Assembly (NCBI GenBank): GCA_031273965.1
Contig: JAISQX010000058.1
Location: forward strand, 1 to 32,266
Direction: 5' to 3'
Source of the DNA: Clostridiales bacterium
Lineage (GTDB): Bacteria > Bacillota > Clostridia > Christensenellales > JAISNN01
Length of the DNA: 32,266 nt
Below, piece after piece: positions 5,949-29,894 of the stretch (its first letter is position 1; the number at the start of each line of letters is the position of its first letter). The notes beneath the pieces were generated by a model. The model was given only the letters and a program-made list of their open reading frames with translations, was not told where the DNA came from and did not search any database. Position numbers and translations under genes: made by a program.

Positions 5949-6911
5949 ATGCCAAAAGGATTTAGCGGCGGCGGGCCCAAGGGGTTTAGCGGCGGCGGCG
6001 GCGGATTTTCGGGCGGTTCAAAAGGATTTTCGGGAGGCGGAAACAGACCGTCTCCGCATAGCTCACACGGGCCGAGACCGCCTGTTCATAGAGGCGGCGG
6101 CGGTAGCTTTTTGGGAGGCATGGTACTCGGACAAATGCTCGGACGATCGTCAAACGGCAGCAACGGCGACGGCAATAACGGCGATAATAACGAAAACGAT
6201 AATATGAACAAAGAGCCGGAAAAACCGACAAAAAAGAGGTGTAATTATTGCGGCACGGAAACGAAAATAGAAACCGAAAAATGCGAGAATTGCGGCTCGT
6301 CTGAATTTACCGTGATACAGCCCGAACCGGAAAGCGGTTCCGTGAAGTCCGCGCCTGTGAAATCACCGGAGGAAATCAAAGCCGAAGCCGAGAGGATAAA
6401 AAAATCCAATAGAACTAAGCTTTGGGTGACTTTGGCGGCTGTCGTGCTATTGATAGTTATTATCGTTGTTTCAACAAAAGCCTGCTCCGCCATAAATATC
6501 GATAAAAAATTTGAGGCGTATACGCCGGTACAAACGGCGTTTTTTCAGATGACGGTAACCGATATCCTGACAACAGAGGGGACGTTTGTGGACGAAACCG
6601 ATCCGTATAAACAGAGTTATTACGCCGCAAAAAACAATGTCTTGTATATAGTAACGGTTTTGATTTATAATAATACGTCATATAACGCTCCGTTTAGCGA
6701 TGAAGAGGATTTTATGTTATACTCCGAGTCTAAAAAAAGCAAGGGCGAGACAATATCGACAAACGAATATACGATAAACGCCGGGGAAAGCAGGTCTTGC
6801 GTAATAGTCTTTGAGATATCCAAAAGCAAAGCGAGCGAGCTGTATTTTATATATATCGAGTACGACCCAAACGGTTATGAGGGCGATACGTACGGAATAA
6901 GGTTAAATTAG
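5949..6911 (+). CDS. Membrane protein: Gly-rich N-terminus, zinc-ribbon, one TM helix, DUF4352-like extracellular domain
   Basis: AGGAGG lies 7 nt before the ATG. The N-terminus has a (K)GFSGGG motif four times. CNYCG..CENCG forms a zinc ribbon and LWVTLAAVVLLIVIIVVS is a TM helix. The DUF4352-like call for the beta-rich C-terminal domain is tentative. Confidence 0.85.
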   Translation: MPKGFSGGGPKGFSGGGGGFSGGSKGFSGGGNRPSPHSSHGPRPPVHRGGGGSFLGGMVLGQMLGRSSNGSNGDGNNGDNNENDNMNKEPEKPTKKRCNYCGTETKIETEKCENCGSSEFTVIQPEPESGSVKSAPVKSPEEIKAEAERIKKSNRTKLWVTLAAVVLLIVIIVVSTKACSAINIDKKFEAYTPVQTAFFQMTVTDILTTEGTFVDETDPYKQSYYAAKNNVLYIVTVLIYNNTSYNAPFSDEEDFMLYSESKKSKGETISTNEYTINAGESRSCVIVFEISKSKASELYFIYIEYDPNGYEGDTYGIRLN

Positions 6912-7469: not shown

Positions 7470-8456
7470 ATGTCGATTGATTTGGTTATGGATTTGGGGT
7501 CGGAAAATGTCAAGATATATAAGTGCGGCGAAGGATTGGTGTTTAACGAGCCCGCGATAGCGCTGGTTGACAGGACGGCGGATAAGCTTTTGCTTGGAGA
7601 AACGGGATATAAAGCCAAAAAGATTGCCGCCGAGACGCTTGAGCGGTACACGCCCGTGCATCCAATAAAAAATGCCGTCATAACCGATCAGGAAGTGGCG
7701 GAGCTTATGTTATGCGATTTTTTGGAAAAAATCAACGTCAGACCCACAATGAAAGAAAGGCTGCGTATAATAGCTTTGACGGCGTGCGGACTTACTTTTA
7801 GCGACAGAAAGGTTTTTGCCGGAATTTTAAAAAATATCGGAGCGTCGCGCGTTTATATAGTCGACGGATTGTTTGCTCTGTATTCGTATTCGGAGGTGAG
7901 CCGCGGATTTTTTGTCGACGTGGGCGGCGCCGTTGCGAACGTTGCCTATATAACCGAAGGCGGTATAGTTTCCGGATGCCATGCCAATATAGCCGGCAAC
8001 GCCATGAATGAGGAGATCTGCAATATGGTTCATTCAAAGTATGCTTTGAGCATTGGCGGTCGCGCCGCCGAAAGATTAAAGCTGTCGTCCGGCGGATTGG
8101 AGCCGAACATAAAACAAAAATTTCCCGTGAGCGGAAAGGATATCGTTACGGGCGAGTTGAGAAGCGCCGAAATAGCCGGTTCGGATATAAGAAGCTGCAT
8201 AGTCGTAACCCTTGATAAACTTGTGTTGCTTATAAATTCCATGCTTTTTTCACTCCCCGAAAAAGACTATAATTTTATCTGTAAAAACGGTATATTTTTA
8301 TCGGGGGGAACGGCGAGACTTTTGGCTCTTCCGGAGTATCTTGCCGAACGCTTAAAACTCAAGATTTGCGTTGTCAAGGACTGCGAAGAAGCGGCGGTAA
8401 CCGGAGCCGCGCGCTTCTATGAAGAAAAGGGATTATTAAGTGATTTTACGGTATAG
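7470..8456 (+). CDS. mreB: MreB/Mbl-family actin-like protein, divergent paralogue
   Basis: It aligns by eye with MreB landmarks: DLGSENVKIY, EPAIAL, HPIKNAVITD, VDVGGAVANV, IAGNAMNEEI and FLSGGTARLL. A GAGG SD lies upstream. Confidence 0.8.
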   Translation: MSIDLVMDLGSENVKIYKCGEGLVFNEPAIALVDRTADKLLLGETGYKAKKIAAETLERYTPVHPIKNAVITDQEVAELMLCDFLEKINVRPTMKERLRIIALTACGLTFSDRKVFAGILKNIGASRVYIVDGLFALYSYSEVSRGFFVDVGGAVANVAYITEGGIVSGCHANIAGNAMNEEICNMVHSKYALSIGGRAAERLKLSSGGLEPNIKQKFPVSGKDIVTGELRSAEIAGSDIRSCIVVTLDKLVLLINSMLFSLPEKDYNFICKNGIFLSGGTARLLALPEYLAERLKLKICVVKDCEEAAVTGAARFYEEKGLLSDFTV

Positions 8457-8566
8457 CGAAGAGAGAGGATAGGGGGGATTCTATCAAAAATTTTCCGACT
8501 TAACGATAAATACATGAAATAAGAATAAAATTAAAATAAAAAATCTAAAAAAAAAGAGGTATAATT

Positions 8567-9874
8567 ATGAACGGTAAGAAAATAAGAGGCTTGATGCTAT
8601 TTTGTCTTGTTATCGCGTTAGTTTTTAGCCTTTCATCGTGTTTTACGAAGAGCGGTAAGTCGGCTTACGAGATAGCGGTCGACAACGGTTTTGTCGGCAG
8701 TGAGACAGACTGGCTGGCAAGCTTGAAGGGGTTGTCGGGAAGCGACGGTACGGATGCGGAAAGTCCTAGCATAGAGGATATCTACGAGGCGTATCTGAAT
8801 AACGGCGGCAATCTCGGGTTTGATGATTTTTTAAGAGAATATCTTTCGGCGAATTACACGCCGGTAGATAAGGCGACGAACGAGGCGTTGCGTTCCGTCG
8901 TCGCCGTTACGGCGGGATTTTCGAGCGGAACGTTACTCGGCGCGGGCGTTATATTCAAATTGGATCAAGAAACCGGAACGGCTTATATAATCACAAATTA
9001 TCACGTCATATACGATAGCGCAATAAGCGCGAACATTAGCGTATATTTGTACGGACATGAGGGGCGCGCGGGATATGCCGTTCCGGCGTCGTATATCGGC
9101 GGTTCGGCGGATAACGATATCGCCGTTCTCATTGCCTCAGGAAGCAATACTATAAAGAATAGCCAGACGGCGGCGGCGGCAACGGTCGCCGATTCCGACG
9201 ACGTATATCCGGGCGGTACGGTGATCGCCGTCGGTAATGCGCAAGGTCGCGGTATATCGGTTACAAAGGGAGTCGTAAGTCTTGATTCCGAGGAGATATA
9301 CATGAATAAAATAACAGGATCGGGAATGGTCGCGATGAGAGTCATGAGAGTTGACGCCGCCATAAACGGCGGAAATTCCGGCGGCGGTCTCTTTAACGAA
9401 GACGGGGAGATAATCGGCATAGTCAATGCGAAAACTGCAAACGAAGAAATCGAAAATATGGCTTACGCCATACCCTCAAATATCGCTTTCGGTATTGCGG
9501 AAAATATTATCTACAACAACGGCTCGGCAAAAAAGGCTAATTTAGGCATTACGACAAGCGTAGTAGACATATCGCAGATTGAGGACCCCGTGACCGGAAG
9601 AGTAAAAATCGTTCATACCGTAAACGTTATCGCCGCTATGTCGGCGCCCGCGCAAGGAAAGCTTTCGTTCAACGACACTATTCTCTCTTTGACGCTCAAA
9701 AGCTCGACGGGAGTCGTAAAAGCGCAAAAGGATATTACGCGCAATTTTATGATTACGGATTTTATTTTTAATGCCAGACCAAACGATATTTTGGTTATCA
9801 GAGTAAAACGCGGCATGACGCAAGTAGACGTGCAAATGACGTTATTTTCACAATATTTTTCTACGGTGGCGTAA
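8567..9874 (+). CDS. Trypsin-like (S1C/HtrA-type) serine protease lipoprotein
   Basis: AGAGG SD. The signal peptide carries a lipobox-like LSSC. The catalytic-triad contexts are ITNYHVI (His), NDIAVL (Asp) and GNSGGGLF (Ser). Confidence 0.88.
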   Translation: MNGKKIRGLMLFCLVIALVFSLSSCFTKSGKSAYEIAVDNGFVGSETDWLASLKGLSGSDGTDAESPSIEDIYEAYLNNGGNLGFDDFLREYLSANYTPVDKATNEALRSVVAVTAGFSSGTLLGAGVIFKLDQETGTAYIITNYHVIYDSAISANISVYLYGHEGRAGYAVPASYIGGSADNDIAVLIASGSNTIKNSQTAAAATVADSDDVYPGGTVIAVGNAQGRGISVTKGVVSLDSEEIYMNKITGSGMVAMRVMRVDAAINGGNSGGGLFNEDGEIIGIVNAKTANEEIENMAYAIPSNIAFGIAENIIYNNGSAKKANLGITTSVVDISQIEDPVTGRVKIVHTVNVIAAMSAPAQGKLSFNDTILSLTLKSSTGVVKAQKDITRNFMITDFIFNARPNDILVIRVKRGMTQVDVQMTLFSQYFSTVA

Positions 9875-16397: not shown

Positions 16398-16859
16398 ATG
16401 TTTGAAGAAAAAGTTTACGAGTTTTTGGATGAAATCGTCAAAGTAGCGCCGATGTTCAAAAAGAATTTTATCGAGTCGTTGGGCTTTATAAAAGAGGGAC
16501 AACTGTCTAATCACCAGTATTTTTGTCTTTCTATTATAGCCATGCAAGAACCGGTGTCGATGAGTATACTCGCAGAGGGTCTGAACGTTTCGAAGCAACA
16601 GCTTACGAGAGTCGTTGACGATTTGGTGGCGTTGGGACTTATCGAGCGTTGTGTCGATCCTAACGACCGCCGCATTATCCTTGCGAAGCTTAGCCGCAAG
16701 GGAGAGAAGTACATTGCGAAACTTAAAGCGACGGCAAAAGAGCGCACCGCGTCATTGCTCAAGATAGTATCAGCCGAAGAGTTTGAAGAAGCTATACGCT
16801 GTCTAAAAAATCTGTCCGACTTTTATGAAAAAACCAAAAATATCGAGAGTGAGGAATAA
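16398..16859 (+). CDS. MarR-family transcriptional regulator
   Basis: 153 aa. It has the winged-helix region ILAEGLNVSKQQLTRVVDDLVALGLIERCVDPNDRRIILAKLSRKGE, typical of MarR. Confidence 0.92.
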   Translation: MFEEKVYEFLDEIVKVAPMFKKNFIESLGFIKEGQLSNHQYFCLSIIAMQEPVSMSILAEGLNVSKQQLTRVVDDLVALGLIERCVDPNDRRIILAKLSRKGEKYIAKLKATAKERTASLLKIVSAEEFEEAIRCLKNLSDFYEKTKNIESEE

Positions 16860-17080: not shown

Positions 17081-17210
17081 CGCGAACCGCATAAAAACCT
17101 CTCTTATTCTGTATACTACTTATTATCTTACAAATATTAATCGCGCCGTTAAGACTCGTGCGCCGTATTAATTTTGTTGACGATAGAGTATGTTGAAAGG
17201 GGGGAGAGAT

Positions 17211-18476
17211 ATGTCCGTTAAGCTTGCCGCAGCCATTTTTAATATTCTATCCGTGATAGCCGCGGGTTTATTTTTTTATCCTCTTAACAGCCGCTTGCGC
17301 GTTAACTATTTTGACGAGGCGGGCAACCGTATTGAGAGCGCGGAATATATTTGCAATTATCGCGGAATTACATATAAGGAAGCGCAAAGGATAATAGGCG
17401 TTTTTAAAAAACGCGGACTAAGCGAAAGCGCCGCCGCGGGAGAAATATACGTAGGTCTATACGCCGACCTTAGCCGTTTTGCCGCCGTGTACGGATATGA
17501 CGCGATAAACGCGGAGGCGGAATTTTTTCCGGAGGCGGAAGAACGGTTTAAATATAAGGAAGGAGTTTTTGGAGCGGGTCTGGACGAAAAGAGCGCGATA
17601 GACGCTATTATAAAAAGCGTCGGTAAAAAAAGCGTGGATGTGACGTTGAGAGTAATAAGATACGAACCGGAATATACGGAGGAGCTTTTGAGGGAAGTGA
17701 CGAAGTATAGAGCATCGTATTCGACAAGGTATCCCAATTCAAAACCGGAGAGAAAGAGCAATATAAAGCTTGCGGCAAGCAAACTAAGCGGCGCGGTTAT
17801 AAACCCTAACGACGTCTTTTCATTTAATGAAACGGTCGGTAAAAGAACGGCGGAACGCGGCTTTTTGAGCGCGCCTATAATATTTGACGGACAGCTTGTC
17901 GAGGGCGTAGGCGGCGGCGTATGTCAGGTCTCCACAACGCTCTATAACGCCGCTCTGTACGCGAACCTTGAAATAGTTCACGTCAAACGTCACAGCTCTA
18001 TGGTTGGATATGTCCCTCCGTCGTTTGACGCGATGGTTAGCGAATTAAACGACTTAAAATTTAAAAACAACACCGGATATCCGCTGTATCTGGCGGCGCA
18101 TGCCGACGACGACTTATTGAATATCGTATTTTACGGGAAACCTATGGAAGAAGGGTTAAAGATAAAGCTTAGAAGCCAAGTAAACAAGATAATACCCGGT
18201 ACGGATAAAGTTTTGATAAACGACGGCAGCTATGAGATTCCGGAGAATGAAAAATTCTTGAGGCTTGCGCGAAGCGCAAACGGTTGCGTAAGCGAGGGGT
18301 ATGCCGACTATATAAAAAACGGAACGACGATTAAATCGGTAAAAATAAGAAGCGACGAGTATAAACCTATGCAAGGCTTAATAGTTATGAATGCGACTAA
18401 AAAGGAAGAGCTTGCGAATCCGTCAAAAGCCTTACCGCTTATTCGTGAAAAAATAGGCGGTTGTTTCACGCTTTGA
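17211..18476 (+). CDS. VanW-family protein with an N-terminal membrane anchor
   Basis: I prefer the ATG at 17211 (GGGGGAG SD) over the track's 17190. The TM helix is LAAAIFNILSVIAAGLFFY. The VanW core motif GGGVCQVSTTLYNAAL is present. Confidence 0.88.
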   Translation: MSVKLAAAIFNILSVIAAGLFFYPLNSRLRVNYFDEAGNRIESAEYICNYRGITYKEAQRIIGVFKKRGLSESAAAGEIYVGLYADLSRFAAVYGYDAINAEAEFFPEAEERFKYKEGVFGAGLDEKSAIDAIIKSVGKKSVDVTLRVIRYEPEYTEELLREVTKYRASYSTRYPNSKPERKSNIKLAASKLSGAVINPNDVFSFNETVGKRTAERGFLSAPIIFDGQLVEGVGGGVCQVSTTLYNAALYANLEIVHVKRHSSMVGYVPPSFDAMVSELNDLKFKNNTGYPLYLAAHADDDLLNIVFYGKPMEEGLKIKLRSQVNKIIPGTDKVLINDGSYEIPENEKFLRLARSANGCVSEGYADYIKNGTTIKSVKIRSDEYKPMQGLIVMNATKKEELANPSKALPLIREKIGGCFTL

Positions 18477-18491
18477 GCCGTTTTTATAGAA

Positions 18492-18515
18492 ATTTTTGCG
18501 GTGCGCGCATAAAAT
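18492..18515 (+). repeat. Copy B of the short element flanking the vanW-family gene
   Basis: ATTTTTGCGG-t-GCGCGCATAAAAT, starting 16 nt after the vanW stop. It can fold as an imperfect hairpin, but no U-run follows. Confidence 0.6.
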
Positions 18516-18671
18516 TATAGACGGTACAGAACGCTTAAATGACAGTTTTTTTGTGCCGATTTGAGCGTGAAAAGGCTCTTTAGCGTATTGCGAGAGGCAA
18601 TGCGCTTACAGAATTCTGTAGTATATTATAATCCTTTATCCGCATACATGCGGCGGACTATTAAAAAATAA

Positions 18672-18689
18672 GGTATAAGACCGTTTTTT
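18672..18689 (+). repeat. Conserved 18-mer GGTATAAGACCGTTTTTT, copy 1
   Basis: Identical to 19702-19719. It has a weak hairpin (GGT-ataag-ACC) plus T6, so at best it is a weak terminator. Confidence 0.7.
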
Positions 18690-18724
18690 CTTTTTGTCTA
18701 TACTCTACCGATATGAAATAGGTT

Positions 18725-18754
18725 CTTGTGGTTGCGGGTTGGGAAAACCACAAG
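18725..18754 (+). promoter_or_regulatory. Inverted repeat / hairpin CTTGTGGTT-N12-AACCACAAG, module 1
   Basis: 9-bp arms at 18725-18733 / 18746-18754. The arms TTGTGGT/ACCACAA recur at 19753-19780 with an unrelated centre. Confidence 0.55.
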
Positions 18755-18811
18755 AAAGACGAAATAGCTTTTTAAAAAGCTTTCCGTCAACGGAAAAATA
18801 TATTTTTTCCA

Positions 18812-18841
18812 TTGACACGGGATTATATTATATTTTATAAT
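18812..18841 (+). promoter_or_regulatory. Sigma-A promoter, module 1 (TTGACA-18 nt-TATAAT)
   Basis: TTGACA at 18812-18817 and TATAAT at 18836-18841. It is preceded by the near-palindromic A/T tract GGAAAAATATATTTTTTCC (18792-18810). There is no ORF downstream. Confidence 0.55.
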
Positions 18842-19174
18842 TAAGAACGTAGATAGCCAACGTCGCTATTACGCACAAAAAAGCGATAGACCGGGTTTTT
18901 GGGTTTGTCACAAAAGAAGAAAGTATAACGAGAGAGCGATAACAAGCGGCAGAATCGGTTTTGTAGCCGTCTGCTATAAGACTTGTGTAGACGATATAAA
19001 TAAGAAGAAATATAAAGGAAAGAAAGCTTTTCCTTGCGCGCGTGGCTTTAGACGCGGTGGAAACCGCTTATGCGAAGAGAAGTCAGTAATTAAAGACACA
19101 AGCGGGCGGGGCAATTAAAAGACCGTACAAGCGCAATAACAGGGGATTAAGAAGGGTATAAGTACAAAAAAACA

Positions 19175-19385
19175 AAGCGGATAAGAAACGACGCATAAGA
19201 CAAAAAGGGCAAGAAAGAGACGGCGTTTCGTTGGCGGTTGCAGGGAAGCGGATAAGAAACGACGCATAAGACAAAAAGGGCAAGGAAGAGACAGCGTTTC
19301 GTTGGCTGTTGCATGGAAGCGGATAAGAAACGACGCATAAGACAAAAAGGGCAAGGAAGACGGCGTTTCGTTGGCTGTTGCAGGG
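19175..19385 (+). repeat. Three tandem direct repeats of 71, 71 and 69 bp
   Basis: The unit AAGCGGATAAGAAACGACGCATAAGACAAAAAGGGCAAG(A/G)AAGAGAC(G/A)GCGTTTCGTTGGC(G/T)GTTGCA(G/T)GG occurs at 19175, 19246 and 19317. R1 and R2 differ at 4 positions. R3 lacks 2 nt. Confidence 0.95.
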
Positions 19386-19701
19386 GAAAAAGTAATGAGG
19401 CGTACCCCCGACATACTCAAAGGCTTTTCCGTTTACGGTGGCAAAGGAAGATTCGCGGGCTCAAATAGGGAAGAGATAGAGGCGCAAACAATCTCGGCTG
19501 TGAATAAAAATTATTCGCAGTTTGAATAAGGAAGAAATAAATCCCGTTCGGGACGGCGCGTAAAGGGGTTTTTACGTTTTAGTGCAAGAATGTTTATACG
19601 CGACGAACGGTAAACGAAAAGCGCCTATAAAATCTCAAAGCGTGCGTAAAAAAGATATAGAAGCATATGATAGCGTTTAAACCCCATCGGAGGTCAAGTT
19701 C

Positions 19702-19719
19702 GGTATAAGACCGTTTTTT
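19702..19719 (+). repeat. Conserved 18-mer GGTATAAGACCGTTTTTT, copy 2 (possible weak terminator CGGT-ataag-ACCG + T7)
   Basis: Identical to 18672-18689. Here the stem is 4 bp and is followed by T7. Confidence 0.7.
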
Positions 19720-19752
19720 TAAGAAAAACTATTAATGCAAAAAAACGGCGGA

Positions 19753-19780
19753 TTGTGGTCGGAGAGGAGTGAAACCACAA
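19753..19780 (+). promoter_or_regulatory. Inverted repeat / hairpin TTGTGGT-N14-ACCACAA, module 2
   Basis: 7-bp arms identical to module 1, with the different centre cggagaggagtgaa. It ends 60 nt upstream of the -35 box at 19840. Confidence 0.55.
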
Positions 19781-19839
19781 AAAACATAGGGAAAATTGTA
19801 AAAAATATTCCGAAATGTAAAAAAAATAATATTTTTTTA

Positions 19840-19869
19840 TTGACAACAAGATAAATAAAGGTATATAAT
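19840..19869 (+). promoter_or_regulatory. Sigma-A promoter, module 2 (TTGACA-18 nt-TATAAT), likely promoter of the giant gene
   Basis: TTGACA at 19840-19845 and TATAAT at 19864-19869, preceded by a long A/T-rich UP-like tract. A second TATAAT sits at 19875-19880. Confidence 0.6.
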
Positions 19870-20277
19870 CAAACTATAATTAAATGATTAATGGGAAGAG
19901 GCTCGAATAAAATATAAGGTATAGAGCTGAAAAAATATTCTTATTGATTAGGTACGACGTAAAAAGCGAAGGAGGAATATGTAAAAATTCCGAATGGCAC
20001 TTTGACGCTGAAAAAACTGTAAAAACAAAAAAACGTCGGAGGACGACGATAAAACATGTCGCGCGCTATAAGCGAAGCGTTCGTAATTATACGATATACT
20101 TAAGACACAAGCGCGATAAACGCGCATTACGCGCGACAAGCGAAGCGGAGATATTTAAAAGCCGAAGAGTCGAATAAAAAAGCGGAGATTATCGAGGGAA
20201 AACCTCGTTGATATATAGAAACAAAAAAATTCGGTTAATGGAAACCGAAAAAACAAAAAATTGACTGGAGGTCAGAT

Positions 20278-23200
20278 ATGGGTAAGAATGGGTATGTACA
20301 GCCGGCGGTGCGCGGCGTACACGGCGCGAGAGCGCGCAAGCAAACGCTTTGGGTTTGGGCAGGTATGCTCTTTTTAAGCGTGATGTTTTTATTAGCGTTG
20401 ATGCCCGGCTACACGGGGCATTCGTACGGCGCTGCGGCGGCGGGCGGTCAGGAGATATCGGAGAGCGCCGACGACGGCGACAGCTTCGTCGCCGCGGATA
20501 AAGATATTGGCGATATGACGATAGACGAGATAATATTGTTGTTGGAAACGTCGGCGTCTTCTCCGGAGGGCGAGGTTATTTATGACGGAACCGTGCCCGA
20601 ATATGGCGGACTCACGGAGGGATCGCCTTTTTACATAGTGCTTAGTTCATTGAGAGCTATTCCGGGTATTTTGGAAATAACTATCGATATTCCGGGTTTG
20701 ACAAAGAATGCCGGTGACTATCCTTTTACTACTACCTTAAGGACTAAGCCGGGGTATACCTTTAACGAGGGAACGGCTTCGGCGAGCGATTATACGATAA
20801 ATCCGGAAAAAACCGTGATAACGATACAAAAGGAAGGCATCGAATTTCACATTAAGCCGATGATTTTGGAGCTTTCTCAAAAAACGCCGATCATATCAAA
20901 GACTTACGACGGCTATACGACTCCCGGAACCGCTTTGACTATAAGTAATTTCGGTACATACTTTGATACTCCCGCGTTAGGAGCAGGCGATACGATAGCT
21001 AACGTGTTTGACGTCGGAAGCTGCTATTATAACGATAAGGACGTGGACGACGCGGACACGTTTACGATAAATCTTTCGCTTAAGACGGATAACTATTTAT
21101 TTAAAAATGGCGTGTCGAATTTTGACTTTGACGCGAGTATAAATCCGAAAGCGATAGATTTTGAGATAATAGACGCCCAAAATAAGATATATGACGGCAA
21201 CGCTACGGCGACGCGGGGCGAGCATTTTGATTTGAAATTCAACGGCGCGCACGAAAACATATCCACAACGGATTATATCTTGGACAATGCGTTCTACAAT
21301 AATGCGAATATCGGTAAAAATAGATTTATCACCGTGCAAATCACATTGGCGGATACCAAAAAAATGCATAACTACTCGTTGCCCGTTAACGAGGTATATA
21401 CGGACGCGACGCTTGAGATTGAAACCAATATCAGAGTATCGGAAACCGAGCTGAGAGAGATAACCGACGTCTTGCTTACGGATAAAGAATCGGAATATAA
21501 CGGAATGACCAAATCCGGTATATACGACAGCGCGAAAGCCGCTATTTTTGTGATGTTGAACAAGCCGGGGTTCCCAGAGAAATTGGAAAGTATAGATATA
21601 TCTTTTGCTCCGACGAGTGTTATCGACGCGGGAACGTATACCGTAACCATAGTTATAACTCTTACCGCAGATACAATATTTTCGGACAACAAAGAGGAAA
21701 CAAGGGAATTTACCCGGGTGTTAACAATAACTCCGAAAGTGCTTACCGTTTCCGGTATAACCGCGCAAAACAAAATGTATGACGGGACAAACGTGATAAC
21801 AATAATCACGGACAGTATGAATGTAGGCGGAATAGCCGCTATCGACGATAATAATGAAGCGCTGCTTAAAGTAACGGTTAGAGGCGGCAACGGTCATACC
21901 TTGACCGCCGCTCCGGGAGTGAATAAGACAGTATTTATCGAGCTTGATATAGAGGGTTCGAGAGCGAGTAATTACAGTGACAACGCGACCGCCAACACAA
22001 CGGTGACAATAAGACCTACGGGTCAGGAGGAGCCGGTTGACAATCTTGGTACGTCGCCCAAAATAATCGGGTTAACCGTAGACGAGATAGCCGCGTTATT
22101 TGAAGGCATGGAGAGCGAGTACAACGGACTTGTGCAGAACAATCTCTATAGCGCGATAATAACATATTTACGCAGCCAAGATGGTATAGGCGACATAAAA
22201 ATATCCTTTATTGACGGCATAGAGAAAAATGCCGGAGTATATAATGTGAGGCTAACCTTAACGGCGATCGAAAATCCGGACGAGATTAATGGAAATTTGA
22301 ATCCGATAGCGTATGCCTTCAGCAACGGAGAAGCGGTGCTTGAAATAAACGTACAGTTGACTATAACCAAAAAAGCCTTGACGGTAAGCAACGTAACCGC
22401 CCAAGATAAAGAATACGACGGCAACACGGTTATCGATATGGATACGAACGCCGCGGTGTTTGACGGACAGATACCGACGGACGATTTGACTATATCGGTT
22501 GTGGGCGAAACAGGCTTTACGGCGGACGCCAGCGTGGGCAAGAATAAAAAGGTATATGTGGAACTGACTCTCGGCGGAGCGGATAGAGATAACTACTTAT
22601 TGACGGCGTTGACCGACGTCACGGCGACGATAAGACCTACGGGGCATGAGGAGCCGACGGATCTTCCGGAGACGGAGCACTTATTAGTCGGTTTAACGAT
22701 AGACGAAATAACGGCTTTGTTAGCCGATAAGAGCAGCGAATACGACGGAACCGTGCAGAGCGGATACTACAGCGACATTATAGCGTATTTGGAAAGCGTT
22801 GTCGGTATAGCGGACGTGGACGTCGAGTTTGACAACTTAAAGAAAGACGCGGGCGAATATGACGTTAGATTTACGTTAAAAGCCGACGAAGATCCCGTAA
22901 ATGAGGAAGCGTATGCCTTTAGCGACGAGGAGTCGACTCTTATCATAGACGTAAAGTTTACGGTTGAAAAGAGAGCTTTGAGAGTCACGGGCGGCATAAC
23001 CGCGTATGACAAGACTTATAATGGCGACAACGTGATACCGATCACCGAAAGCGGCGTTAGCTATGACAGAAAAATAACATGGGATGATTTGGTTGCAAGC
23101 GTCCTCGGCGGCGTAGGATATACGGACAACGCGAGCGTCGGAAAGAACAAGCCCGTGTACGTAAAGCTTAATTTTACGGGAGCCGACAGAGATAACTATA

Positions 23201-26200
23201 AGGTTGAGGCGTATGTTGACGGCGTAACGGCGACAATAAGACCGACCGGCGCGGAAGAGCCGGACGATCCGATCACGGAGTCCAAAATAGTCGAATTGAC
23301 GGTAGCCGAGATAGAAGAGACTTTGACCGGTCACAGCAGCGTATACGACGGAACCGCGCAAAGCAACTATTACGACGATATCAAAGCGTATTTGGAAAAC
23401 GTTGTCGGTATAGCGGACGTGGACGTCGAGTTTGACAACATAAGGAAAGACGTGGGCGTATACGACGTAAGAATAACCTTAACGGCGGAAGAAAACCCGA
23501 ACGGAAATCCCGCTTTTGCGTACGGATTTAGCGACGGAGAATCGACGCTTGTCATAAACACGCAATTGACGATAACAAAAAGAGAGCTGACGATAACCGG
23601 AGGCATAACCGCCGAGGACAAGACTTACGACGGTAACAATGAAATAACCGTCGCTATAGGAAGCCTGCAACAGATAGGGAAAATACCCTCGGATGATTTG
23701 CAATTTGGCGTCAAAGACGGAAAAGGTTATACGGATAACGCGAGCGTGGGAAAGAATAAACAGGTATATGTAAACCTTATTCTTTCGGGCGCGGACGCGG
23801 ACAACTACAAAGAGAAGGCGTATATAGAAAACACGACTGTAAATATATTGCCGAGCGGTGTAAATCCCGATCCGGATCCCAATCCGGATCCGTCGGACGA
23901 CAGGATAATAGACTTGACGGTGGAGGAAATAGAGGCTTTATTCACCGATAAGCGCAGCGAATATGACGGAACCGTACAGATCGGCTACTATGATGATATT
24001 AAGGACTACTTATTATCCGTGGAAGGTATAGCAAGCGTGGACGTCGTGTTTGACAACTTGAGAAAGGACGCCGGCGCATACAACGTAACTATAACGCTTA
24101 GGGCGGATGAGGACACGAACGGAAATCCCGCTTTGGCGTACGGATTTAGCGATATGGAGTCCGAGCTTGTCATAAACGCCGTATTTACGGTTGAAAAGAG
24201 AGCTTTGACGGTAACGAGCGGTATAACCGCCTACGACAAGACTTACGACGGTAACAATGTAATACAAATCGACATAAGCGTTGTGAATTTTGACAGAAAA
24301 ATAGCCAGCGACGACTTGAGTATCGACTTGAACGGCGTTAACGGCTACACCGACAACGCGAGCGTCGGAAAGAACAAACCGGTGTACGTAAAGCTTGATT
24401 TTACGGGCGCCGACAGAGATAACTATAAGATTGAGGCGTACGTCAACGACGTAACGGCAACGATAAGACCCACGGGCGTGGACATACCCGACACGAATCC
24501 CGACGACGATAGAATAATAGACGGAATTGAGGTCGAAGAAATAATCGCGCTTTTTACGGACAAGAGCAGCGAATATGACGGAACGGTACAGAACGGATAC
24601 TTTGAATCTATAAGAGCTATGCTTTTGGCTATCGAGGGAATAGGATACGTATATGTAGACTATGGCGCACTGACAAAGGACGTCGGCGTTTACGATATCA
24701 AGGTTACGGTAAAGGCGGAAGAATACCCGAACAGGAATCCCGCTTTGGCGTACGGATTTAGGAACGGAGAGTCCGAAATAGTCATAGATGCGAAATTTAT
24801 TATAACGCCGAAGATGCTAACCGTGCACGGAGTAACGGCGGAGAATAGAAAATATGACGGAACGCCCACCGTAGACCTTGAAGTGAATAACATGACGATA
24901 TCCGGAGTGATATCGGGCGATGACGTTAATGCGACGATAACGGACGCGGACACCAACAAAGATGGAATACAAGGCACCGTCGAAACCGCCGCACCCGGGA
25001 AGAACAAAACCGTCTATGTGAATTTGTCGCTTAGCGGAGCGGATTTATCTAATTACAGCATAAAGGGCATAGCCGGTACGGTAAATATAACCGTCGGAGA
25101 CACGGAACCCGATAGCTCCGAAATCATAGGATGGGACGTTGTGGACGCCATAAAATATGCCGTGACGGATATAAGAACGACGTATAACAAGACCTCGCAA
25201 AAAGATGCGTTTGACGCGTATATTGATTCGGCGATAAGAGATTATACCGATAAAGTCGTTGTCTCTTCGGTGACCTTTGACAGAGATCCTTTCAACGCGG
25301 GAGCGTATACGGCGACTATAAGAATTGAGGCGTTCAGAGATTATCAAACGGCGTATGTGTTCGGTAACGGAGAAAGCTACTTTGAGTTTGAAAGAACCTT
25401 GACAATCGACAGAAGAGAGGTTATAATTCTCGGCGTGACGACGGCTTATCCGAACAACACCAGACCGTACGACGGAACCAACGTGGTGGCGATAGTAATG
25501 CCGGGCGCTAATAATTACAGCGGAATAATAGCCGGCGACGTAATATATATCTCCGCGCCCGTAGGCAATGTCGGCTATATGGTCGACGCCAGCGTGGGAA
25601 AAAACAAGAAAGTTGAAATAAACGCCACTATAGGCGGGGCGGACGCGCATAACTACGCGCTCAGACCGATTGCGGATGTGACGGTAACCATAACGCCGAC
25701 GCAAAACCAAAACGGCGAGGACTTGATAGTCGAAATGTCGGTTGAGGAAATAGCCGCGCAGATTTCACCCCTGTCAATCGAATATGACGGAAAGGTGCAC
25801 GACTGCGCAACACTGTACGACGAGGACGCGAACGGCATTAAAGACGGAGTGTACAACACCGTGTACGCCAATCCTTTTGACGGAATAAAATACGCATTGG
25901 AAGCGGTTATCGGAATTGCGGACGCGAGGTTTGACATAGTGAGATTGTCAAAAGACGCGGGCATATATAGGGTAATCGTTACGATAACGGCGGAATCCGA
26001 TCCGCTTGTGCCTATGGCTTACGCTTTCGGTAACGGCGAATCTAAGATTTCGTTTGAAACGACCTTGACCATAACGAGAAGGCAATTGACCGTGACTTCC
26101 GGGGTAGAGGTGGAAAATAAAGTCGGCGGCAAAGGAACTAAGATTTATGACGGAAAAACCGACGTAACGCTCAATGTCGCGACTATGGCGCCTAATTGGA

Positions 26201-26799
26201 AAGGCAAAGTGGCGGAAGACGATTTGTCGCTCATGCTCATTCATAATAACGGAAAGGCGGTTGGCTATACGGCTTCTCCGAATGCCGGAAAAAACAAGGC
26301 GATAAGCGTAAAGGCTTATCTCAGCGGAGCCGATGTGAGAAACTATGACGCGAACGTTATATTGGAGGGAGTATCGGTCGATATCTTGCCGAGAGAAATA
26401 ACCGCTAAGGTTACTATCAATGAAAAAGATTACGACGGAACGACCGGCGCAACCGTAAAAGAAGTGGAATTTGACAACCTCGTGGAAGGCGAAACGTTGA
26501 TAGAGGGCGTTGACTATACTATAGAAGCTCGCTTTACGGACGAAGAACCCGGCGACGACAAGAGCGTAATAGTAACCATAAACCTCGACAATGGAAACTA
26601 TGCGTTCTCCGACGCAAATCCGATTAACGGAACGGTTACCGACGGCGGCGCACACGCGGTGTTTGAGGTTAGGGGCGGAAGAATCGTTTCTACGGGAATT
26701 AAGCTTTGGGGCTGGTTCTTACTCGGCACGGGCACATCCTTTGCGATAGGAATATTCTTGTCTTTCTTAAAGAAAAGCGGAATGATTTTGGCGGCGTAA
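20278..26799 (+). CDS. 2173-aa modular cell-surface protein with alternating MBG-like and YDG-type adhesin repeats, an N-terminal signal peptide and a C-terminal TM anchor
   Basis: GGAGG at 20267-20271, 6 nt before the ATG. The signal/TM segment is WVWAGMLFLSVMFLLALMP..SYG/AAA. The motif set xYDG(T/N)..., GKNKxVYV and GAD(R/A)xNY occurs about 11 times, alternating with SEYDGTVQ...DAGxYDV...T(I/V)xK(R/K)xLTV modules. The C-terminus is LWGWFLLGTGTSFAIGIFLSFLKKSG. The domain family names come from motif recognition only. Confidence 0.9.
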   Translation: MGKNGYVQPAVRGVHGARARKQTLWVWAGMLFLSVMFLLALMPGYTGHSYGAAAAGGQEISESADDGDSFVAADKDIGDMTIDEIILLLETSASSPEGEVIYDGTVPEYGGLTEGSPFYIVLSSLRAIPGILEITIDIPGLTKNAGDYPFTTTLRTKPGYTFNEGTASASDYTINPEKTVITIQKEGIEFHIKPMILELSQKTPIISKTYDGYTTPGTALTISNFGTYFDTPALGAGDTIANVFDVGSCYYNDKDVDDADTFTINLSLKTDNYLFKNGVSNFDFDASINPKAIDFEIIDAQNKIYDGNATATRGEHFDLKFNGAHENISTTDYILDNAFYNNANIGKNRFITVQITLADTKKMHNYSLPVNEVYTDATLEIETNIRVSETELREITDVLLTDKESEYNGMTKSGIYDSAKAAIFVMLNKPGFPEKLESIDISFAPTSVIDAGTYTVTIVITLTADTIFSDNKEETREFTRVLTITPKVLTVSGITAQNKMYDGTNVITIITDSMNVGGIAAIDDNNEALLKVTVRGGNGHTLTAAPGVNKTVFIELDIEGSRASNYSDNATANTTVTIRPTGQEEPVDNLGTSPKIIGLTVDEIAALFEGMESEYNGLVQNNLYSAIITYLRSQDGIGDIKISFIDGIEKNAGVYNVRLTLTAIENPDEINGNLNPIAYAFSNGEAVLEINVQLTITKKALTVSNVTAQDKEYDGNTVIDMDTNAAVFDGQIPTDDLTISVVGETGFTADASVGKNKKVYVELTLGGADRDNYLLTALTDVTATIRPTGHEEPTDLPETEHLLVGLTIDEITALLADKSSEYDGTVQSGYYSDIIAYLESVVGIADVDVEFDNLKKDAGEYDVRFTLKADEDPVNEEAYAFSDEESTLIIDVKFTVEKRALRVTGGITAYDKTYNGDNVIPITESGVSYDRKITWDDLVASVLGGVGYTDNASVGKNKPVYVKLNFTGADRDNYKVEAYVDGVTATIRPTGAEEPDDPITESKIVELTVAEIEETLTGHSSVYDGTAQSNYYDDIKAYLENVVGIADVDVEFDNIRKDVGVYDVRITLTAEENPNGNPAFAYGFSDGESTLVINTQLTITKRELTITGGITAEDKTYDGNNEITVAIGSLQQIGKIPSDDLQFGVKDGKGYTDNASVGKNKQVYVNLILSGADADNYKEKAYIENTTVNILPSGVNPDPDPNPDPSDDRIIDLTVEEIEALFTDKRSEYDGTVQIGYYDDIKDYLLSVEGIASVDVVFDNLRKDAGAYNVTITLRADEDTNGNPALAYGFSDMESELVINAVFTVEKRALTVTSGITAYDKTYDGNNVIQIDISVVNFDRKIASDDLSIDLNGVNGYTDNASVGKNKPVYVKLDFTGADRDNYKIEAYVNDVTATIRPTGVDIPDTNPDDDRIIDGIEVEEIIALFTDKSSEYDGTVQNGYFESIRAMLLAIEGIGYVYVDYGALTKDVGVYDIKVTVKAEEYPNRNPALAYGFRNGESEIVIDAKFIITPKMLTVHGVTAENRKYDGTPTVDLEVNNMTISGVISGDDVNATITDADTNKDGIQGTVETAAPGKNKTVYVNLSLSGADLSNYSIKGIAGTVNITVGDTEPDSSEIIGWDVVDAIKYAVTDIRTTYNKTSQKDAFDAYIDSAIRDYTDKVVVSSVTFDRDPFNAGAYTATIRIEAFRDYQTAYVFGNGESYFEFERTLTIDRREVIILGVTTAYPNNTRPYDGTNVVAIVMPGANNYSGIIAGDVIYISAPVGNVGYMVDASVGKNKKVEINATIGGADAHNYALRPIADVTVTITPTQNQNGEDLIVEMSVEEIAAQISPLSIEYDGKVHDCATLYDEDANGIKDGVYNTVYANPFDGIKYALEAVIGIADARFDIVRLSKDAGIYRVIVTITAESDPLVPMAYAFGNGESKISFETTLTITRRQLTVTSGVEVENKVGGKGTKIYDGKTDVTLNVATMAPNWKGKVAEDDLSLMLIHNNGKAVGYTASPNAGKNKAISVKAYLSGADVRNYDANVILEGVSVDILPREITAKVTINEKDYDGTTGATVKEVEFDNLVEGETLIEGVDYTIEARFTDEEPGDDKSVIVTINLDNGNYAFSDANPINGTVTDGGAHAVFEVRGGRIVSTGIKLWGWFLLGTGTSFAIGIFLSFLKKSGMILAA
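22010..25090 (+). repeat. Five tandem ~603-620-bp coding repeats (about 201-206 aa each) inside the giant gene, with weaker copies on both sides
   Basis: The module-end motif (..TIRPTG..) recurs near 22012, 22632, 23236, 23848, 24466, 25085, 25690 and 26385. Segment 22783-22836 matches 23386-23439 at 53 of 54 nt. Segments from about 23114 and about 24349 are roughly 90% identical over about 130 nt, by eye. Confidence 0.9.
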
Positions 26800-29686: not shown

Positions 29687-29865
29687 CTCTCGGAAATAAG
29701 CGGCGGGGCGAACTGAATGAGTTTTTTAGGGAAGCGAGAAGCTTTTCGAAAAGAATCATGCGGGCGCTTAAAAAAACGAAAGGCGTTTGTGTATATGCGT
29801 TCGGGCGGAGGGCGGTTGTAAACCTCAAAAAACCGCCTGAAATCCAAAAATTTTTTAAAAACATA

Positions 29866-29894
29866 TTGACATTGACTCGAATATATTATATAAT
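29866..29894 (+). promoter_or_regulatory. Sigma-A promoter (TTGACA-17 nt-TATAAT) for the GLUG-repeat gene
   Basis: TTGACA at 29866-29871 and TATAAT at 29889-29894, about 90 nt upstream of the ATG at 29985. Confidence 0.7.

Follow-up and report, generated by a model that had tools for sequence, protein, structure and literature searches.

A candidate promoter cassette for giant surface-protein genes, present in two diverged copies in an uncultured Clostridiales genome

The window analysed here is the entire 32,266-bp contig of a metagenome-assembled genome (MAG) labelled 'Clostridiales bacterium'. Between a VanW gene and a giant surface-protein gene (the YDG gene) it carries a 1.8-kb spacer poor in open reading frames (ORFs), in which the same three landmarks, an 18-mer, an inverted repeat and a consensus promoter, occur twice. 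Why should one giant gene be preceded by two such modules, and do the landmarks represent functional elements or what is left of a duplication? The explanation that we prefer, with moderate confidence, is that the modules are two old paralogs of a clade-conserved promoter cassette for giant secreted or surface-protein genes, which would here be under common operator control.

The three landmarks described in a first-pass annotation are present at the positions given there (Table 1); they are colinear, in two copies each and about 1030 bp apart. Even when up to three mismatches are allowed, the 18-mer GGTATAAGACCGTTTTTT has these two copies as its sole window matches (0.03 expected), and the dyad TTGTGGT-N14-ACCACAA has just its two matches at up to two mismatches (0.04 expected). 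The 14-nt centres of the two dyads agree at 5 of 14 positions and are unrelated, as had been noted. The promoters of modules 1 and 2, P1 and P2, both read TTGACA-18-TATAAT and score 12/12, with the hexamers and the 16–18-nt spacing of predicted sigma-70/SigA-type promoters. Such perfect promoters are not rare, as five are found on the + strand of the contig.

Between the landmarks the sequence has diverged, with identity falling to about 60% outside them. Because the local alignment of 18620–18850 with 19662–19885 scores 79, compared with 36 ± 5 for shuffled sequences, homology between the two segments extends across some 230 bp. The similarity stops at the -10 element, and the 0.86 kb past P1 and the 0.4-kb leader of P2 are unrelated in sequence. 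The layout does not correspond to an invertible promoter. Just 14 nt lie between the dyad arms, both of which precede the promoter; the 18-mers are direct repeats, and the window holds no invertible segment flanked by inverted repeats around a promoter.

Relatives of the locus were reached through proteins, using VanW homologues that are at most 59% identical; the closest all derive from one group of JGI, ENA and Logan samples, and the VanW proteins of the relatives under comparison are 48–56% identical. Three of these loci (L021, L038 and L054) keep the order VanW, CNNM-like gene, dxs, ORF-poor DNA and giant secreted protein. The ORF-poor DNA before the giant gene measures 5 kb in L021, 0.7 kb in L038 and 2.2 kb in L054, and the giant genes encode 1065 aa (as called), 6642 aa and 3703 aa, respectively, with leaders of 600 nt in L038 and 960 nt in L054. 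In L038, TTGTGGC-N14-ACCACAA (7958–7985) is located 86 nt, start to start, before a perfect TTGACA-17-TATAAT promoter (8044–8072). In L054, TCTTGTGGTCG is located 85 nt before a perfect promoter (9445–9473; 12/12, 17-nt spacer), with its right arm decayed to TATCAAA. The corresponding distances from left arm to -35 in modules 1 and 2 are 86 and 87 nt. The arms, whose absence from orthologous loci had been named beforehand as the sign of a decaying duplication, are therefore conserved there, as the dyad at L038 and as the left arm at L054, and the dyad, the promoter and the 85–87 nt between dyad and -35 are found again in front of the giant genes of two relatives. In 114 kb of clade DNA, exact TTGTGG-N16-CCACAA is found only at the module 1, module 2 and L038 cassettes, and the 7-mer TTGTGGT alone is not over-represented in general.

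The likeness extends past the promoter. Downstream of the -10 element, P2, L038 and L054 have TATAATCAAA followed by a second -10-like element, and AGGTATATAATCAAA is common to P2 and L054. This second TATAAT-like element lies 5–15 nt past the true -10, near the predicted start (window 19875–19880, L038 8078–8083, L054 9481–9494), and could give sigma-dependent promoter-proximal pausing or serve as an alternative -10.

Pairs of cassettes compared over 142 nt reach z scores of 4.5–7.8, except for module 1 with L038 and the pairs with L021, whereas the same cassettes compared with five other perfect promoters give z scores of -1.3 to 3.5. Generic promoter architecture therefore explains just part of the similarity. 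Module 1 is 66% and module 2 is 72% identical to L054, and the two modules are 60% identical to each other, differences that rest on about 135 columns; as each is nearer to L054 than to its neighbour, the duplication is old or the copies are of different origin. Between the window and L054, VanW coding DNA has 64% identity and the intergenic DNA that follows it cannot be aligned, so that the cassette (72%) is conserved at least as well as the neighbouring coding DNA. When the four cassettes (window 18717–18856 and 19745–19884, L038 7949–8088, L054 9350–9489) are used as an nhmmer profile, they alone are recovered (E ≤ 1e-15) in 528 kb. The next match (E 0.0035) is a phage contig that had itself been picked by the dyad-promoter pattern, and the L021 promoter is not recovered. 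A scan of IMG/VR for the pattern of dyad plus promoter gave 15 chance-level matches, the best of which (L043/L050) is a phage contig with small genes, and was discarded. In contrast to the cassettes, the giant proteins behind them show no BLASTP similarity among the parts at hand.

These comparisons bear on the view that the modules are a neutral, decaying segmental duplication whose shared landmarks survive by chance. An identity of just 60% and the unrelated sequence past the promoters would be expected from it, but dyad, offset and promoter are conserved in genomes as distant as the VanW identities indicate, and an exact 18-nt run in a 60%-identical 230-nt alignment has, by rough estimate, a probability of about 0.01–0.02. 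We regard neutral decay as very improbable. A recent tandem or segmental duplication is likewise not what the modules look like, given their low identity, the end of the similarity at -10 and the closer match of module 2 to L054 than to module 1. The proposal that the landmarks are functional elements, and not a fresh or neutrally decaying duplication, is borne out for the dyad and the promoter, both of which recur before the giant genes of L038 and L054.

How the dyad might act was left between an operator and an RNA hairpin in the first-pass annotation, which asked whether the arms covary or stay fixed. They stay fixed: every core arm that is present reads the same, with exact TTGTGG and CCACAA and unrelated centres in both modules and L038, and a count of pairs finds covariation no better than in shuffles (254/500), the core pairs being either invariant or broken. 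In L054 one arm is lost with no compensating change. Because the arms are fixed, do not covary and have lost one member in L054, the operator is favoured over the RNA hairpin. The dyad has conserved half-sites, a spacer variable in sequence and fixed in length, and a fixed distance to the promoter, as expected of a palindromic operator, with the left half-site only in L054. The favoured reading of this pattern is that a dimer recognises the sequence of the dyad in double-stranded DNA, at half-sites separated by about two helical turns.

We nevertheless considered that the dyad works as a nucleic-acid hairpin, either as a DNA cruciform or as an RNA stem-loop that would insulate each promoter by terminating or attenuating read-through transcripts. 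The hairpin of module 1 is stable (-14.2 kcal/mol, z -3.7) and is the most perfect palindrome of all, T7 directly follows the L038 dyad as in an intrinsic terminator, and the palindrome is 2–3 bp longer in module 1 and L038, with different bases. Reverse-complementing the L038 centre makes it, by inspection only, similar to the others, as in hairpin-loop flips. However, the hairpin of module 2 (-7 kcal/mol, z -0.6) does not exceed shuffles in stability, both window copies lack a U-tract after them, and the loop has 12–14 nt. Rfam yields nothing on the whole window at gathering thresholds and only chance-level matches on 18400–20400 at E ≤ 10. With no covariation beyond shuffles and no Rfam family, the dyad does not resemble a structured cis-regulatory RNA, and together with the invariant core arms and the uncompensated loss in L054 this makes a hairpin function unlikely. 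Of the two options offered initially, the operator thus fits better and the hairpin less well.

In the explanation that we prefer, the two segments would be old paralogous copies of a cassette of at least 230 bp that an uncultured Clostridiales clade uses for giant secreted or surface proteins. Its first part would be a consensus housekeeping-sigma promoter with an A/T-rich, UP-like stretch upstream. The second is the 28-bp dyad, which has its centre near -110 and half-sites TTGTGGT(T) spaced by about two helical turns, and which would be the operator of a dimeric DNA-binding regulator and put both promoters under common control. The third, about 125 nt upstream of -35, is the 18-mer, a T-run preceded by a small GGTATAAGACC palindrome, which may mark the left edge of the unit. 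P2 would be the orthologue of the giant-gene promoter of the relatives, and P1 an extra upstream copy. From the sequence we infer activity of the two promoters, binding of a protein at the dyad and read-through from P1.

Several points weigh against this explanation. The right arm is missing in L054 and the L021 promoter has no recognisable dyad, so a complete dyad is not indispensable, and the sample is small, with four cassettes from three genomes. P1 and P2 are consensus matches only, and the dyad, at -110, is distant from promoters that are already at consensus. The link of the 18-mer to a wider clade motif, described below, rests on resemblance and not on position. Finally, no regulator gene is consistently linked to the cassette in the window and at the loci of the relatives. 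The MarR gene two genes upstream (16398–16859) was rejected as the regulator since it is without a counterpart near the cassettes of the relatives. A conserved protein of about 165 aa without a Pfam match is encoded immediately upstream of VanW in L019, L021, L036, L038 and L054, where the window has the MarR gene in its place. In an alignment of four of the five it shows long hydrophobic stretches, which suggest a membrane protein. A literature search on the arm sequences returned nothing relevant, and the dyad matches no operator known to us.

The 18-mer behaves differently from the other two landmarks. The idea that it is a conserved element did not hold, as it is not kept at the corresponding position in the relatives; exact scans of two collections that do not include the source contig gave 18 matches in 596 Gb of GTDB genomes and 12 in a JGI metagenome set, which is chance level and in unrelated taxa, and the dyad is absent at all 18 genome matches. 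At 15 of 18 positions, with a 2-nt gap, the 18-mer resembles the motif (C)GGTATAG(A/T)ACCG, which has 23 matches in the clade (4.4 expected), most full-form copies being in ORF-poor or intergenic stretches. In L054 this motif forms A-run/stem/T-run terminators at 8204 and 8532 (-16 and -11.9 kcal/mol). The motif or its GGTATAG core is present in the leader downstream of four of five promoters (window 19918, L038 8202, L054 9529, L021 18800), and a degenerate copy follows P1 (18883–18900).

The window copies of the 18-mer have a variant loop (ATAAG) and only a 3–4-bp stem. Their T-runs are in place, but the stem energies (Table 1) are at shuffle level and the terminator scan calls neither copy. 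The 18-mer was consequently rejected as a terminator on its own, and is predicted to be unable to terminate efficiently alone, unlike the GGTATAG-ACCG hairpins of the relatives. A conserved RNA structure around it was also rejected, since the A-run that pairs with the T-run lies upstream in copy 1 but downstream in copy 2. Because the core ATAAGAC recurs in six + strand copies in the 1.8-kb spacer, the 18-mer does not stand alone as a landmark. It seems to be a weak, local version of the clade-wide hairpin/terminator motif, and its exact identity in copies that are otherwise 60% identical may reflect either constraint or a short gene-conversion patch. Across the window ATAAGAC occurs 16 times (4.2 expected), including + strand copies at 21923, 22009, 22630, 23236 and 24463, five copies being inside the YDG gene. 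These probably come from the coding of a D-K-T-Y-D-G repeat, GAT AAG ACn TAC GAC GG, read at 24220, and the YDG gene and the spacer have no wider similarity. GGTATAGA was considered as a skewed octamer of the whole genome, but its enrichment is about 6-fold only, compared with 45-fold for CG-rich octamers, and is unremarkable.

What, then, does the upstream copy drive? The first-pass annotation had one module driving the adhesin-like gene and the other ORF-less DNA. The 0.86 kb after P1 is indeed mostly ORF-poor; it is not strictly ORF-less, as a 52-aa protein, MDR1905621, is annotated in it. The division of labour is less secure, because P1 may do no more than add an upstream promoter to the adhesin gene. 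The terminator scan finds no strong + strand terminator between P1 and P2, so read-through into the P2 leader and the YDG gene is the simplest expectation. P1 would accordingly transcribe 0.86 kb of leader-like, purine-rich, repeat-bearing RNA without a conserved ORF and most likely continue into the P2 leader and the YDG gene, P1 and P2 acting as tandem promoters.

Alternatively, P1 could make a product of its own that is co-regulated with the adhesin, either a long non-coding RNA of about 0.86 kb with three 71-nt repeats or a 44–52-aa peptide from 19371–19529. A perfect promoter with its own dyad stands before the region, the ATAAG motif is enriched in it (10 observed, 2 expected), and the small ORF is called by both NCBI and JGI and has an AGGGGA ribosome-binding site (RBS) before the ATG at 19395. 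Against this, the fold of the region is no better than shuffles (z -0.5) and belongs to no Rfam family, leaders of different loci share no sequence similarity above shuffles, those of the relatives included, and the unit has no clear terminator at its end. There is no excess of GGA motifs (16 compared with 19 ± 4 expected; ANGGA 8 compared with 6.5), so a CsrA sponge of the CsrB/RsmZ type was rejected. A phmmer search of 1.84 billion representatives yields no credible homologues of the 52-aa ORF. It matches just two immunoglobulin (Ig)-repeat proteins, and the E values of 1e-16 and 8e-12 were dismissed as the product of summing 7–9 weak matches to the motif VYGGxGxFxGS. The ORF is probably spurious or an orphan, and a separate P1 product is in our view distinctly unlikely.

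The tail of P1 invites a further alternative, in which the cassette is an expression site for giant genes that are swapped, and module 1 with its 0.86-kb tail is what remains of a former cassette, leader and gene, P1 having no current role. The former coding part would have been lost when the present cassette and the YDG gene arrived. We hold this reading as tentative and doubtful. It would account for homologous cassettes in front of giant proteins without BLASTP similarity, for the synteny from VanW to the giant gene in L021, L038 and L054, and for the closer relation of both modules to L054 than to each other, although these identity differences come from the same roughly 135 columns. The tail is leader-like, purine-rich and has tandem repeats of about 70 nt, as in L054, and a crossover at the 18-mer, or a short patch of gene conversion, could explain its identity in the two modules. 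A long-dead relic, however, would not be expected to retain a 12/12 promoter and the most perfect palindrome of the set, and there is no trace of a former coding region. The tail as a decayed YDG or Ig-repeat gene was rejected, as it has no similarity to YDG (tblastn, E ≤ 10) or to the rest of the contig (blastn); it has one 30-aa match to P0141 (E 0.007).

In a broader and equally tentative form of this idea, members of the clade may exchange unrelated giant genes behind the cassette, which would be a conserved expression site with a constant chromosomal place downstream of VanW and would provide both a common regulatory input and a homology anchor for recombination. The second copy and its tail would then be a swap scar or a standing landing pad, perhaps with a co-regulated long non-coding RNA.

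Purine-rich tandem repeats of 69–73 nt also lie near the L054 cassette (8938–9290 and 8564–8778), like those at 19175–19385 of the window in style and period. Just upstream of the same cassette are about a dozen ATAAGGTATAGAG motifs with a 24–26-nt period, and the same 13-mer is found in the P2 leader of the window (19914–19926).

The surrounding genes follow a core chromosomal order: the end of fusA, tuf, recF, maf, mreB, a serine protease, a sugar transporter, a CLC channel, an M48-like peptidase, MarR and VanW (17190–18476), then the spacer, the YDG gene, secG and RNase R, with NCBI protein accessions of the form MDR19056xx. No close homologue or paralogue of the YDG protein was found, and literature searches on YDG adhesins returned nothing relevant. 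The coordinates of the features are collected in Table 1.

Table 1. Features in and around the two modules (positions are those of the window)
Feature	Positions	Strand	Remarks
P0, weaker promoter-like site CTTACA-16-TATAAT	18605..18632	+	10/12; its -10 region lies inside the block homologous to 19662-19672
18-mer copy 1, GGTATAAGACCGTTTTTT	18672..18689	+	3-bp stem and T6, -1.7 kcal/mol
Dyad copy 1, TTGTGGT-N14-ACCACAA	18726..18753	.	palindrome extends to TTCTTGTGGTT/AACCACAAGAA; centre about 109 nt upstream of predicted P1 start
A/T-rich 58-nt spacer, dyad to -35	18754..18811	+	two small palindromes, 18766-18781 and 18781-18796
Promoter P1, TTGACA-18-TATAAT	18812..18841	+	12/12
P1 transcription unit (predicted), ORF-poor, purine-rich	18842..19701	+	A 36%, G 28%, T 19%
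Three tandem copies of a 71-nt purine-rich unit	19175..19385	+	two ATAAGA motifs each
52-aa hypothetical ORF, MDR1905621	19371..19529	+	called by NCBI and JGI; internal ATG 19395 follows AGGGGA
18-mer copy 2	19702..19719	+	4-bp stem CGGT/ACCG and T7, -3.4 kcal/mol
Dyad copy 2, TTGTGGT-N14-ACCACAA	19753..19780	.	centre about 110 nt upstream of predicted P2 start
Promoter P2, TTGACA-18-TATAAT	19840..19869	+	12/12; predicted orthologue of L054 and L038 giant-gene promoters; shares AGGTATATAATCAAA with L054
YDG gene leader	19870..20277	+	about 400 nt, A-rich, structured (z -4.3); GGTATAGA at 19918-19925; GGAGG RBS 20266-20270
Second -10-like TATAAT	19875..19880	+	5 nt past P2 -10; same layout in L038, similar in L054
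Giant surface-protein gene (YDG gene)	20278..26799	+	2173 aa; signal peptide, 10 YDG domains, C-terminal membrane anchor

Other parts of the window and of the relatives show features of their own. A perfect TTGACA-17-TATAAT lies inside the YDG coding region (25399–25427, +), possibly by chance or as an internal promoter. At 29803–29873 the hairpin GGCGGTTGTAAACCTCAAAAAACCGCC precedes a perfect promoter at 29866; this is the best non-cassette nhmmer match in the window, without significance (E 0.19), and its stretch CCTCAAAA(AA)CCGCC is found again as the centre of the dyad in L038. Given the base composition, octamers rich in CG, CGGCGGCG among them, are about 45 times commoner than expected in the window and in L019, L021, L023, L036–L038 and L054–L056; these genomes are otherwise A/T-rich, and codon usage or a repeat are possible causes. 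L038 has another perfect promoter (6368–6396), with pyrimidine-rich repeats of about 24 nt in tandem (TCTCCCGTTATCTCTCCCAACTC, 6280–6367) directly upstream of it; it precedes a regulator-like gene with Schlafen/AlbA_2 and HATPase_c_4 domains, and this gene is located just before the L038 cassette. The 1.5-kb leader of the giant gene in L021 contains four consecutive long-hairpin units resembling miniature inverted-repeat transposable elements (19000–19963), whose inverted arms of 25–38 nt share AATATCTTTTTTAAATCTATCGCG and enclose 64–111 nt; these units could be segments that invert, or mobile miniature elements.

In many gut Firmicutes, contact with the host or with surfaces is made mainly by giant adhesins, whose control in uncultured lineages is almost uncharted. 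The 28-bp dyad gives a bait for a regulator, TTCTTGTGGTTGCGGGTTGGGAAAACCACAAGAA, and the cassette gives a search profile for such giant genes in MAGs. Its occurrence before unrelated giant genes gives a testable idea, that of an expression site with exchangeable cargo.

The cassette can be compared with several known systems. Leader elements of the ops/RfaH and LoaP type mediate processive antitermination of long operons, the ops element being GGCGGTAG. The short strand-specific motif GCGGTATAG, present downstream of all five promoters compared, in leaders before very long genes, is like them in resemblance only; it has a 2-nt insertion relative to GGCGGTAG, and no NusG paralogue was found near the locus. 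The recurrence of GGTATAG-ACCG and the terminators of L054 recall palindromes that double as terminators, of the repetitive extragenic palindrome (REP)/bacterial interspersed mosaic element (BIME) or uptake-sequence kind, from which the 18-mers of the window differ in their variant loop ATAAG and 3–4-bp stem. The cwpV and flgB leaders of C. difficile are examples of tandem promoters or long structured leaders of large surface-protein or flagellar operons in Clostridia. Here, too, a repeat- and hairpin-rich leader of 0.4–1.5 kb separates a strong promoter from a very large surface-protein gene, and more than one promoter is possible; the cassette locus differs in having no riboswitch (Rfam negative) and the window in having no invertible segment around the promoter.

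BirA-type operators are long-spacer dyads such as TGTAAACC-N14-16-GGTTTACA that overlap the promoters of biotin genes. Like the cassette dyad, they have two inverted half-sites of 7–9 bp with about 14–16 variable bases between them, and both start with TTGT; the half-site is TTGTGGT here and TGTWAACC there, and there are no biotin genes at this locus. The closest class is that of sigma-70/SigA promoters with an UP-like region and a distal palindromic operator, which the cassette resembles in its consensus hexamers, its 17–18-nt spacers, the A-rich stretch upstream of -35, and a dyad with conserved arms, a variable centre and a fixed distance to the promoter. It differs from this class in that the dyad is unusually far upstream (about -95 to -122), with half-sites about 20 bp apart centre to centre. 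The kind of arrangement, a promoter with an upstream operator in tandem duplicate, is familiar and not surprising to a specialist; what is new is the specific element, its putative regulator, and the contrast between a conserved cassette and the unrelated giant genes behind it.

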